Positions 15,003 to 40,398 of a DNA stretch of 64,000 bases are shown here, in pieces. The notes under the pieces were generated by a model that saw only the letters and a list, made by a program, of their open reading frames with translations, searched no databases and was not told the DNA's origin. The translations under genes and the position numbers were made by a program. Each line of letters starts with the position of its first letter. Within the stretch, counting starts at the first letter, position 1. The stretch covers positions 3,494-67,493 of the forward strand of contig DAOLDD010000014.1 of NCBI GenBank assembly GCA_035327585.1, given 5' to 3'. Source of the stretch: Kiritimatiellia bacterium. Lineage in GTDB: Bacteria; Verrucomicrobiota; Kiritimatiellia; CAIVKH01.

Positions 15003-15884
15003 CTATTCGCGTGGTTCGCGGGTACCCGCTTCGTCCGCGGCTGCACGCTGCATCAGCCAGTCGGCCAGCGCCTCGGCGCCCTGCAGCCAGCGAGGGCCGG
15101 GGCGCAGGAGCCAGTCGGACGGAATTTCGCTGCAAATCGCGCCGCGCTCGACCGCGGGCAAACGCCGCCAGCCGGGCCGGCGCGCCAGATAGCCCGCGCC
15201 CGGCTCGGCGCGCGGGATCATGTAGGCGAGCACAATCACGTCGGGCTTCTGCTGCAAAATCCACTCCGCGCTTACGTGCGCGTAAGGCCGGTCCAGCGCC
15301 GCGCCGAGATTACGTCCGCCCGCGAGTTCCACGAGGTCGTGCAGAAACGACGGACGTCCCGGCGTCGTCAGCGGATCACTCCATACCTCGACATACGTCA
15401 GCGGCCGCGCGCGCGCCGCCCAGTACGCGTCCACCCGCCGCGCCAGCGCATCGCGTCGCGCACGCGCATGCGCCACCCAACGCGCCGCGCCATCCGGATC
15501 GTCCAGCGCCGTGCCCAGCGCCTCCACCGCCGCCATCATCTGTTCCCAACTCTCGCACGGCAACCGCAGGAACTGGATGCCCGCCGCGCGCAGCGCATCC
15601 GCGAGCCCCGGCCGCTCCACGTCCGTACTCACCACCACGTCCGGCTTCGCGCGCAGCAGCCACTCCAGGTTCGGCCGCCCGAATGAACCGGCCACCGGCA
15701 GCGTCGCCGCCTCCGGCGGAAAATCGCACGCGTCCGACCGCGCCATGAGCCGGTCGCCCCACCCCGCGTCGTAAATGAGTTCGGTGAACGACGGCGCCAG
15801 GCTTGCGATCCGCCGCACGGGCTCGCCAGCTCCCGCCACGCGACACGCAGCCAGCAGGAGCAAAAAAATCAGAACATTGCGCAT
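15003..15884 (-). CDS. ABC transporter periplasmic substrate-binding protein, BtuF/FhuD-like (cobalamin/iron-siderophore/heme class)
   Basis: Signal peptide, then IASLAPSFTELIYDAGWGDRL and PDVVV...PDVIVL blocks typical of helical-backbone (class III) binding proteins; 293 aa. Confidence 0.75.
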   Translation of the reverse strand: MRNVLIFLLLLAACRVAGAGEPVRRIASLAPSFTELIYDAGWGDRLMARSDACDFPPEAATLPVAGSFGRPNLEWLLRAKPDVVVSTDVERPGLADALRAAGIQFLRLPCESWEQMMAAVEALGTALDDPDGAARWVAHARARRDALARRVDAYWAARARPLTYVEVWSDPLTTPGRPSFLHDLVELAGGRNLGAALDRPYAHVSAEWILQQKPDVIVLAYMIPRAEPGAGYLARRPGWRRLPAVERGAICSEIPSDWLLRPGPRWLQGAEALADWLMQRAAADEAGTREPRE

Positions 15885-16105
15885 GCCCCATTCCTACCAC
15901 GAACCCGTCGCACGGTCACGGACCACCGCCCGCCATCCGCCTCTTATAGGACTTTCCCAAGCTTTGTTTGCCCCCACCGGCCTTGCGCCGGTGGAGCAAA
16001 AGTTCCTCGGCTACCGGGACACAAGGGGATCACCCGCCATCCGCCTCGTCCGTTGACACCTGCAAGGGCGCGTGCAAATATGGCTCCACTTTTCGGGAGA
16101 TCATC

Positions 16106-16606
16106 ATGGCTGTACTCATGGGCATGTCGGGCGACGTCAAAGGGAAGACGTTCCCCATCGGGGACGAGGGACTAACCCTCGGGCGCCATGCCGACAACCA
16201 GGTCTCCCTCAACAACGCCACCGTCTCGGGCCACCACGCCGTCATCAAGCGCGAGGGCGACCAATATATCCTGCGCGACCTCGGCTCCACCAACGGCTCC
16301 CGCGTCAACTCGCGCGAGATCAAGGAATCGCCGCTCCGCCCGAAGGACCTCGTTCAGATCGGCTCCGTCGAATTCCTCTTCAATTCCGAGGCGATGAGCT
16401 TCGAGGACGCACAGGCCGTCTTCACCCGCACCGAGGTGCTCGAAACCAAGGGAGGCACGGAAATGCCGGAATCGTTCGGCAACATCTCCCCGTTCGGCGC
16501 GCGCCGCCGCGAGAACCTGACGATCTGGATTCCAATCATCGCCGTGCTCGGCCTGCTCGCCGTCGGCGTGGTGATTTACCTCCTCATCAAGCTGTTCACC
16601 GCCTGA
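16106..16606 (+). CDS. FHA-domain protein with a C-terminal transmembrane anchor
   Basis: FHA motifs (LTLGRHADNQVSL...SGHHAVI...LRDLGSTNGSRVN) and a C-terminal TM helix IWIPIIAVLGLLAVGVVIYLLI. Start set at MAVLMGM (the ORF-track start at 15968 is rejected). Confidence 0.8.
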   Translation: MAVLMGMSGDVKGKTFPIGDEGLTLGRHADNQVSLNNATVSGHHAVIKREGDQYILRDLGSTNGSRVNSREIKESPLRPKDLVQIGSVEFLFNSEAMSFEDAQAVFTRTEVLETKGGTEMPESFGNISPFGARRRENLTIWIPIIAVLGLLAVGVVIYLLIKLFTA

Positions 16607-18062: not shown

Positions 18063-18122
18063 AATTTACAACGTCTGTAAAAACTTTTTTACGGACTTAC
18101 AACGTCTGTAATTCCTTTTTTG
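18063..18122 (+). repeat. tandem pair of a roughly 31-nt unit containing TTACAACGTCTGTAA followed by an A/T-rich T-run (copy 1 of 3 dispersed loci)
   Basis: TTACAACGTCTGTAAAAACTTTTTTACGGAC followed by TTACAACGTCTGTAATTCCTTTTTT. Near-identical pairs occur at 27618-27680 and 40340-40398. Confidence 0.8.
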
Positions 18123-27474: not shown

Positions 27475-27525
27475 GGCCCCCGGCGGGCTTGTCCCGCCGG
27501 AGCCTAAGTTCCTTGGCTACAGCGT
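27475..27525 (+). repeat. structured hairpin repeat element (7-8 bp GC stem, CTTGY loop, conserved 3' tail AAGTTCCTYGGCTAC); copy 1 of 3
   Basis: GGCCCCCGGCGGGCTTGTCCCGCCGGAGCC is identical (30/30) to the reverse complement of 37042-37071. A variant with compensatory stem changes lies at 15971-16015. Confidence 0.8.
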
Positions 27526-27617
27526 AACCGCCGAACTTTCGCTCCCGCGACGCGAGGTCGCGGGGGGCGGGAAGAACATCCCGGACGCCACCAATTTTCA
27601 ATGCTCATCTTCGTGCG

Positions 27618-27680
27618 AAAAAGTTTCAACGTCTGTAATTTCTTTTTTTAAAAAGTTTCAACGTCTGTAAAAATATTTCT
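27618..27680 (+). repeat. tandem pair of the TTTCAACGTCTGTAA + T-run unit (copy 2 of the TTACAACGTCTGTAA family)
   Basis: TTTCAACGTCTGTAATTTCTTTTTTT followed by TTTCAACGTCTGTAAAAATATTTCT, in the 265-nt hisB-hisH intergenic gap. Confidence 0.8.
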
Positions 27681-36235: not shown

Positions 36236-36321
36236 GCCCGGGTGGCGAAATGGCAGACGCAAGGGACTTAAAATCCCTTGATCGAAAGATCGTGTGGGTT
36301 CGAGTCCCACCCCGGGCACCA
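36236..36321 (+). tRNA. tRNA-Leu (anticodon UAA), CCA encoded
   Basis: GCCCGGG-UG-GCGA-AAUGGCAGA-CGC-A-AGGGA-CUUAAAA-UCCCU-long variable arm UGAUCGAAAGAUCGU-GUGGG-UUCGAGU-CCCAC-CCCGGGC-A-CCA. The cloverleaf folds by hand, and the T-loop is GGTTCGAGTCC. Confidence 0.9.
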
Positions 36322-36527: not shown

Positions 36528-36947
36528 CTATTCGCCAATGATTTTGACGAGGACGCGTTTGTCGCGGCGGCCGTCGAATTCGCCGTAGAAGATGCACTCC
36601 CAGGGACCGAAGTCGAGGCGGCCGTTGGTGATGGCGACGACGGTTTCGCGGCCCATGATGGTGCGCTTCAAATGCGCGTCGGCGTTGTCCTCGCCGGTCT
36701 CATTGTGCTCGTACTGGCTGTGCGGCTTTTCCGGCGCGAGCTTTTCCAACCAGCGCTCATAGTCGGCGTGCAGCCCGCTCTCGTTGTCGTTGATGAACAC
36801 GCTGGCGCTGATGTGCATGGCGTTGACCAGACACAACCCCTCGCGCACGCCGCTCTCGCGCAGGCACGCCTCGACCTGTGGCGTGATGTTCACGAACCCG
36901 CGCCGCGTCGGCAGCTTGAACCACAGTTCCTTGCGGTAGGTTTTCAT
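36528..36947 (-). CDS. YjbQ/UPF0047 family protein (secondary thiamine-phosphate synthase-like)
   Basis: [25 protein letters not shown]...[34 protein letters not shown] is typical of the UPF0047 family; start set at the internal ATG 36947. Confidence 0.75.
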
Positions 36948-37041
36948 GGGGAATTGTTTAGCCTCGAAAAATACGAAATACACGAAATAAAAAGCGATGG
37001 GTTGGAAGTGGGGAGGGGCACGCGATAGCGCCATGAACTTT

Positions 37042-37071
37042 GGCTCCGGCGGGACAAGCCCGCCGGGGGCC
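37042..37071 (-). repeat. structured hairpin repeat element (copy 2; reverse orientation), in the yjbQ 5' leader / msbA 3' flank
   Basis: 30-nt perfect reverse-complement match to 27475-27504; the conserved tail continues as AAAGTTCATGGCGCTA on the minus strand. Confidence 0.8.
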
Positions 37072-40339: not shown

Positions 40340-40398
40340 AATTTACAACGTCTGTAAAAGCTTTTTTGCAGGCTTACAACGTCTGTAAAACCTTTTTG
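40340..40398 (+). repeat. tandem pair of the TTACAACGTCTGTAA + T-run unit (copy 3)
   Basis: TTACAACGTCTGTAAAAGCTTTTTTGCAGGC followed by TTACAACGTCTGTAAAACCTTTTTG, between convergent genes. Confidence 0.8.

Follow-up and report, generated by a model that had tools for sequence, protein, structure and literature searches.

The 64-kb window analysed here (by which is meant the whole stretch of DNA, at its full length) carries in its intergenic regions copies of a short hairpin followed by a conserved tail. The question raised by these copies is what kind of element they represent: a structured RNA that is selected for its fold and shared by several genes, or a repeat that spreads and is maintained as DNA. 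The original prediction, which was made on three of the copies, listed a REP-like element, a mobile small-RNA module and a shared cis-regulatory RNA motif as candidates and preferred selection on RNA structure.

Copies of the element in the window

The three loci exist as claimed, their sequences having been re-read at each locus, and the 30 of 30 nt identity between copies 1 and 2 (GGCCCCCGGCGGGCTTGTCCCGCCGGAGCC) was found again. The stems pair as predicted, but over 8 bp and not over 7: they are CCGGCGGG/CCCGCCGG in copies 1 and 2 and CCACCGGC/GCCGGTGG in copy 3, and each consists of six variable pairs and two flanking C-G pairs. A covariance model was built and the window scanned with it, which recovered these three copies and, in addition, a fourth full copy and a degenerate remnant that had both been overlooked. 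The four full copies score 58.8-63.3 bits and the next best match in the window is the remnant at about 11.8 kb, with 17.8 bits. The features are as follows.

27476..27520, plus strand: REP-like copy 1, GCCCCC-GGCGGG-CTTGT-CCCGCC-GGAGCCTAAGTTCCTTGGCTAC; left arm of the tail-to-tail doublet; covariance model 63.3 bits
27524..27568, minus strand: REP-like copy 4, GCCCCC-CGCGAC-CTCGC-GTCGCG-GGAGCGAAAGTTCGGCGGTTAC; right arm of the doublet; covariance model 62.3 bits
27475..27569, no strand: composite tail-to-tail doublet, a REPIN-like unit of copies 1 and 4 in the hisB (IGPD)-hisH spacer
37025..37070, minus strand: REP-like copy 2, singlet; covariance model 59.7 bits
15970..16014, plus strand: REP-like copy 3, singlet; covariance model 58.8 bits
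11770..11835 (approximate), minus strand: degenerate remnant of an inverted pair, GCCCCCCAAGGGAGC...AGTTCTTAAGCTACGCTGTCCCGAACTTAAAG; covariance model 17.8 bits, E = 0.017

Copy 4, with the stem CCCGCGAC/GTCGCGGG and the loop CTCGC, is placed 3 nt from copy 1 in tail-to-tail arrangement. Copy 1 folds as DNA with -15.0 kcal/mol (z-score -3.0), and for the doublet 27475..27569 the RNA fold is a three-way junction with -60.1 kcal/mol (z-score -4.5). In the remnant the tails are retained and the main hairpins are lost or shortened. The consensus of the window copies is c-GCCCCC-(6 nt)-CTYGY-(6 nt complement)-GGAGC-NN-AAGTTC-NNN-GGYTAC. The degenerate pattern GCCCCCNNCGGNCTTGYNCCGNNGGAGC, with up to three mismatches, matches the window four times, against 0.02 matches expected from shuffles. 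The window belongs to a metagenome contig of 178.7 kb (ENA ERZ794927 NODE_37) with 65% G+C, and by its HisH homologues the organism falls among the Kiritimatiellae.

The dispersed copies counted in the 64-kb window, four full ones and one remnant, are all intergenic, as had been predicted, and the genes adjoining them are functionally unrelated to one another. Copy 2 is sense to msbA and is located 27 nt past the msbA stop (37098) and ~75 nt before the real yjbQ start (~36947). The public YjbQ call (168 aa, minus strand) starts at an ATG inside copy 2; this start is spurious, so the copy is no exception, and the conserved YjbQ protein begins 29 codons later (window 36947-37034 region, minus strand), which gives ~139 aa. 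Copy 3 has on one side a Peripla_BP_2 gene on the minus strand (15003-15884) and on the other, divergent from it, an ORF on the plus strand with its start near 16107.

Copy 3 is also bracketed by a direct repeat of 15 nt without mismatch (CCCGCCATCCGCCTC), at 15929-15943 and 16033-16047, with a spacing of 104 nt. Target duplications are not expected from Y1 transposition, and this repeat may stem from the duplication of a promoter region or be what a larger insertion left behind. The sole Rfam or ARAGORN match of the window is a tRNA-Leu (anticodon UAA; 36236-36321, plus strand), ~700 nt from copy 2 and without evident link to it. Another motif, TTACAGACGTTG(T/A)AA, is present in six exact copies that form three pairs spaced 31-32 nt (18066-18111, 27624-27670 and 40343-40388, all on the minus strand), where 0.03 would be expected by chance. 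With TGTAA the motif is a palindrome, TTACA-N5-TGTAA. Relatives keep the pair that precedes hisH in their orthologous spacers, some of which have the variant TTTCCAAGCGTTGGAAG. In appearance these pairs are operator or promoter elements that serve a small regulon, and they have no relation to the REP family.

Distribution and architecture of the family

The pattern GCCCCC-N(15-19)-GGAGC-NN-AAGTTC, in which stem and loop bases are free, was scanned for in one genome per species (at least 112 stretches) and gave at least 137 matches. Among the matches listed, 53 pair at five or more of the six free stem positions. The window's own copies account for seven of them, as three enter a second time through L001, and the remaining 46 are from other genomes; the 84 unpaired matches listed are chance occurrences, mostly in unrelated taxa. 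The 46 outside copies among the matches listed come nearly all from MAGs assigned to Kiritimatiellia, Lentisphaerae, Verrucomicrobiota, Planctomycetota, the 'PVC group' or Candidatus Auribacterota, the exceptions being one contig labelled Limnochordia and several labelled only 'uncultured bacterium'. Other MAGs bear, among the matches listed, copies on several contigs each. The covariance model, run over the collected loci, finds at least 115 copies from at least 45 sources.

The element is ~46 nt long, and its conservation extends from position -1 to about +44 and no further. At the level of the family the unit is made of c-GCCCCC, the 8-bp stem, a YTYRY loop, GGAGC-NN-AAGTTC and NNN-GGYTAC. 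Its tail of ~20 nt reads (A/C)AGTTC-N3-4-GCTA(C), so that the opposite strand of the tail end is GTAGC, and the hairpin foot is specific to the subtype (5' G-N-CC, 3' GG-N-G-N). Fold z-scores of the elements range from -2.2 to -4.5.

The compensatory stem changes that the original prediction had seen in three copies are massively borne out in the wider family. The helix of 47 distinct copies is paired to 99.5%, with double changes in seven of its nine pairs. The covariation score is 0.515, whereas shuffles score 0.143 and slid registers do not exceed 0.13. In a set of 111 copies, 972 of 999 stem cells are Watson-Crick. Moreover, loop positions 1 and 4, which were outside the search filter, covary almost perfectly in the same 47 copies (C-G in 27, U-A in 19, unpaired in one). 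The loop is thus closed down to two bases, with one bulged pyrimidine after the closing pair. Loops of this sort are known from either nucleic acid, as CUUG with a C-G pair in RNA and as CTTG and TTTA mini-loops in DNA, and therefore cannot separate the two. Nor is the covariation of the stem a proof of RNA, as it is equally expected for the single-stranded DNA substrate of a HUH transposase.

Four subtypes were defined by the hairpin-foot bases and the start of the tail: A (cGCCCCC..GGAGCGAAAGTTCA..AGCTA), B (aGACCCC..GGTGAATCAGTTCA..AGCTA), C (cGGCCCC..GGGGAGAAAGTTCA) and D (gGTCCCC..GGAAACCCAAGTTCG). Across 403 hairpins the base two positions 5' of the stem is tightly coupled to the first and third 3' bases: 120 of them combine C with A..C, and 143 combine A with T..A. 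By analogy with the guide/cleavage-site interactions of IS608, this coupling may be a recognition code. Extension of the main helix into the foot bases was also considered and gives no consistent pairing, the coupling of the 5' N with the 3' N (C-A, A-T) being a subtype signature. Types A and D could also form a local mini-hairpin, GAGC-GNAA-GUUC, but types B and C could not in the same register, and this mini-hairpin is not claimed here. As AGC was fixed by the search pattern, covariation of a long-range AGC/GCU helix is uninformative.

The copies also form higher-order arrangements. In direct arrays, which repeat every 60-70 nt, the segments between the repeats are alike too. Inverted pairs are both tail-to-tail and head-to-head, and clusters mix subtypes A-D in both orientations. 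The doublet of the window recurs with ~90% identity in another MAG (twice in L063 and once in L070), and the similarity ends sharply at both outer hairpins. Many of the REP clusters are found in the first few hundred bases of contigs (L043, L045, L063, L070, L082, L084, L098, L103 and L105), and it seems that the assemblies of PVC-group MAGs often break because of this repeat family.

Presence, absence and orientation of the copies

The orthologous hisB-hisH spacers of relatives whose HisH is 80-91% identical lack the doublet and have the sequences upstream of hisH in common. Over ~130 kb of those relatives the covariance model found no copy. The evidence for mobility is this one polymorphic site, whose flanks have diverged and show no clean empty site.

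Non-Watson-Crick stem positions were counted in a flank-independent set of 403 distinct hairpins, in which G.T is found 34 times and A.C five times; in the smaller set aligned by the covariance model the counts are four and seven, respectively. The larger set suggests that one defined strand is selected to fold. The G.T excess fits top-strand recognition by enzymes of the IS200 type as well as it fits RNA.

Gene contexts were obtained from crude longest-ORF calls, by which seven clusters fell 'inside' spurious ORFs. According to these calls, copies are found in divergent, convergent and tandem intergenic contexts, and where the flanking genes are co-directional types A and C are nearly always sense to them and type B antisense. 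The orientation bias could be explained by a replication-strand bias of single-strand transposition or by added selection in transcripts. The sense bias of types A and C and the GNRA-like GAGC-GNAA-GUUC mini-hairpin of type A are compatible with additional selection at the RNA level.

A Y1 transposase gene flanked by inverted copies

A partner gene was looked for by all-against-all BLASTP of the ORFs near clusters. One ORF family is common to four MAGs and is always placed between inverted copies. The proteins match the Pfam family Y1_Tnp with E values of 7e-10 to 1e-13 and 40-52 bits, above the cutoff of 23. Their best NCBIfam match is transpos_IS200, at 40-52 bits and under its cutoff of 55, and REP_Tyr_transpos (RAYT) gives 17 bits with a cutoff of 80. 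A phmmer search with E. coli RayT against all ORFs of ~900 kb of loci returned nothing. At least 734 homologues of ~245-290 aa were found, which bear the generic JGI label 'REP element-mobilizing transposase RayT'. Most of them are on contigs of ~1 kb and most homologue clusters are recorded on one to four contigs.

The gene is flanked by hairpins in eight distinct related loci, i.e. the four MAGs and four homologues on long contigs. In three of the four long-contig loci (L122, L123/L124 and L126) the sense copy ends exactly at the start codon, and in all four the antisense copies overlap or follow the stop codon, weakly so in L125. The gene in L122 is found between two head-to-head doublets reading GTAGC...CTAC, with its ATG 4 nt past the upstream CTAC and its TAG stop inside the downstream GTAGC, and in L124 the TAA stop is within GTTAAC of the inverted copy.

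The covariance model was also run on 80 further loci from metagenomes in which the partner is encoded, and has 221 matches in their 256 kb. An independent signature scan was also used, which asks for CC, a 6-bp stem with at most one mismatch, complementary loop positions 1 and 4, and GG. It finds 313 hairpins in these 80 loci, none of them within the gene. Upstream of the gene 125 are sense and 49 antisense, whereas downstream 108 are antisense and 31 sense. As controls, the same scan finds four hairpins in the 64-kb window and none in 82 kb of relatives without the gene.

In the related genomes the gene is placed exactly between two tails, and the hairpins point away from it. The tail-to-tail doublet of the window has this same structure, but with 3 nt where the gene would be, as in a REPIN. 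Neither the window nor 10 kb beyond it contains a Y1 transposase gene. The transposase locus L144, from a sister assembly of the same ENA series, was considered as the cognate gene of the window and rejected, its stem subtype being different.

The partner protein

The partner (proteins P0121-P0240, for example P0127; loci L122-L206, L041, L082, L035 and L076) is a fusion of two Y1 domains, of which the N-terminal one has only the Tyr helix and the C-terminal one only the HUH motif. In the alignments Y112 and Q116 are invariant in the N-terminal half (V..YI..Q), as are H202 and H204 in the C-terminal half (DH.H). Compared with known structures, the C-terminal half matches IS200-type TnpA over residues 5-118, the HUH part (E = 3.6e-12), and the N-terminal half matches IS608 TnpA over residues 16-138, with the Tyr helix included (E = 0.002), but has QLTFS at the place of HUH. 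The two halves are weakly alike (hhalign E = 2e-4). The structure is predicted with confidence (pLDDT 91, pTM 0.89), and the strand-helix order of the Y1 fold occurs twice in it. A fold search gives TM-scores of 0.7-0.79 per domain with the TnpA proteins of ISDra2, Sulfolobus and IS608, and one of 0.49 with E. coli RAYT (4er8).

The published Y1 classes have ~150-325 aa and none shows such a split of motifs (PMC6006769). A two-domain Y1 transposase does not seem to be contained in the existing Y1/RAYT classifications, and a search of the literature found no paper on RAYTs in Kiritimatiellae or Lentisphaerae.

Comparison with known systems

The element resembles the REP, BIME and REPIN sequences associated with RAYT proteins (E. 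coli REPs, P. fluorescens REPINs) in being an extragenic G+C-rich hairpin that occurs as singlets, inverted doublets and mosaics of subtypes. Mixing of subtypes in both orientations has likewise been described for E. coli BIMEs and for REP dimers (PMC3733652). The placement of a Y1 HUH gene between inverted copies and the GTAG-containing motif on one side are further likenesses. Unlike canonical REPs, the hairpin has no GTAG at its foot; GTAGC is found ~16 nt from the stem, with the conserved AGTTC motif in between, and the loop is a closed two-base one with a bulged pyrimidine. The partner also differs from E. coli RayT, which has 165 aa and the motif Y-x3-NP, in having ~250-280 aa, two fused Y1 domains and Y-x3-Q. 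It falls outside the RAYT class in the strict sense (class 2, Y-x3-NP; REP_Tyr_transpos), given its motif YIxxQ, its score of 17 bits against a cutoff of 80 and its TM-score of 0.49.

The closest relatives of the partner in both sequence and fold are the IS200/IS605 transposases, of which the TnpA proteins of IS608 and ISDra2 recognise subterminal hairpins on the top strand. The strand-specific selection suggested for the hairpin is a likeness to these systems, and the variable foot bases recall their guide sequences. However, the ends of IS200/IS605 elements are direct, whereas the copies flanking the partner gene are predominantly inverted. In IS200 TnpA two identical chains of ~130-155 aa form a dimer and each of them has both HUH and Tyr, whereas the partner joins a Tyr-only and a HUH-only domain in one chain.

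Two published sets of sequences from related bacteria were also compared. The GTAG REPs of PVC bacteria (GTAG-17 to -20 of Opitutus terrae and GTAG-20 to -22 of Rhodopirellula baltica; PMC3733652) belong to the same superphylum and have stem subfamilies, and their dimers, whether head-to-head or tail-to-tail, have 1-2 bp between the two units (Di Nocera et al. 2013, PMC3733652). Neither AAGTTC nor GAACTT is present in the supplementary files of that paper and no O. terrae or R. baltica REP sequence matches; the encoded peptides listed there for O. terrae REPs do not correspond to the window element. The class 3 TnpA_Y1 proteins of Planctomycetes and Acidobacteria (Quentin et al. 2018, PMC6006769) are similar to the partner in being non-canonical Y1 proteins with unusual flanking hairpins and an IS200-related tyrosine motif. 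They are described with 'atypical secondary structures', ~178 aa, NHVH and YV..EQ motifs and the hairpin foot CnGA (PMC6006769). The partner differs from them in its two domains, its motifs DH(L/A)H and YIxxQ, and the foot GNCC / GGNG.

Nature of the element

The hairpin is kept by covariation, is spread over MAGs of the PVC group, forms arrays and doublets of which one is present or absent at an orthologous site, and is associated directionally with a Y1 gene. The best explanation is that the copies belong to a REP-type family of short, palindromic DNA elements, which are non-autonomous and have as their cognate enzyme a single-strand DNA transposase of the Y1 (HUH) type, from the IS200/RAYT superfamily. 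We give this reading a probability of about 0.8. The family is a variant of the REP/RAYT kind that has so far been undescribed. It is filed as such because it has the palindrome, the doublets and mosaics and the inverted flanks of that kind, while lacking the GTAG foot and a class-2 RAYT, and because it is not an ordinary IS200.

Among the alternatives, the one that deserves most attention is that an active insertion sequence of the IS200 type has left the copies as its solo or decayed ends (MITE- or PATE-like remnants), and that they are not REPs kept by a single-copy domesticated RAYT-like gene. The IS200/IS605 transposase family being the best NCBIfam match of the partner speaks for it, as do the tyrosine motif Y-x3-Q, which is that of the IS200 class and not the Y-x3-NP of RAYTs (classes as in PMC6006769), and the fold, which is nearer to the TnpA of ISDra2 and Sulfolobus (TM-score 0.72-0.79) than to E. 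coli RAYT (0.49). In addition, the patchy distribution across phyla and the absence from sister species suggest horizontal spread. This explanation is nevertheless unlikely: the ends of IS200/IS605 are not inverted repeats and the flanks here are inverted, there are far more hairpins than genes, with subtypes mixed in BIME-like mosaics, the majority of homologues have been recorded from no more than a few contigs, and the same gene is found in the same neighbourhood in two different metagenomes (L123 and L124).

The reading that the original prediction preferred, a structured RNA motif (cis-regulatory or a small-RNA module) selected for its RNA fold, could draw on the strong covariation of the stem, the CUUG-type loop and possible GNRA mini-hairpin, the sense bias downstream of genes and the excess of G.T over A.C. 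Against it, the motif is not conserved at orthologous loci, the doublet being absent from the orthologous site; copies occur in either orientation, in arrays, in inverted doublets and in divergent, convergent and tandem contexts; the neighbouring genes are unrelated in function; and there is a specific directional association with a transposase gene, which the copies flank. The element matches no Rfam family even at permissive thresholds: with Rfam 15 the tRNA-Leu alone reaches its gathering score in the window, and a permissive search of the array-rich loci and the doublet gave only chance-level miRNA or lncRNA matches. Selection on RNA structure is thus very improbable as the main explanation, and from the original list of candidates the REP-like element stands while the shared cis-regulatory RNA and the small-RNA module do not. 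An intrinsic terminator was rejected too, as the stem is followed by AGC-NN-AAGTTC (GGAGC when the last two G of the stem are included) with no T run on either strand, and a terminator scan of 26.5-38 kb did not report the elements. The core of 36 nt and the regular 60-70 nt periods of several loci recall CRISPR arrays, in which case the window copies would be orphan repeats. The array sequences themselves already refute this, and its probability is close to nil: the 'spacers' are alike within an array, so that the whole unit of 61-68 nt repeats, the stems differ between repeats of one array, and inverted copies are interspersed.

Proposed mechanism and significance

A mechanism for the REP-type family can be proposed from the paradigms of IS608/ISDra2 and RAYT. 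The enzyme would bind the top-strand hairpin folded in single-stranded DNA, for example at the replication fork, and would read the bases of the hairpin foot. Cleavage would take place in or near the tail, with GCTAC/GTAGC as the candidate site, and would thereby copy and spread, or maintain, singlets and doublets. A copy inserted after a gene may act secondarily as a 3' stem-loop in the transcript, as E. coli REPs do. By the same analogy copy 2 is likely to be a 3' stem-loop of the mRNA after msbA, and an effect at the RNA level, such as 3' stabilisation of msbA mRNA, is possible as a secondary one.

A more specific proposal, which we hold tentatively and consider somewhat less probable than an even chance, is that the repeats are the DNA substrate of an uncharacterised class of Y1 enzymes widespread in PVC bacteria. 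Two fused IS200-type domains would split the chemistry between them as a single-chain 'heterodimer' with one composite active site, and the foot bases (GCC..GGAGC versus GAC..GGTGA) would be a recognition code between subtype and enzyme. If this is true, the two-domain enzyme would be placed between the dimeric IS200 TnpA, with its active sites in trans, and the monomeric RAYTs.

For annotation, these elements are selfish or domesticated repeats and not a shared riboswitch-like regulator, which removes a false lead, and they account for the mis-called start codon of YjbQ. The REP family described here and its covariance model span several phyla of the PVC group, whose metagenome assemblies are visibly broken by such repeats. 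The repeats are an ordinary type of genome feature and the unexpected part is the enzyme, which with its two domains could serve as a natural system for the study of how a HUH active site is assembled and how a hairpin and its guide bases are read.
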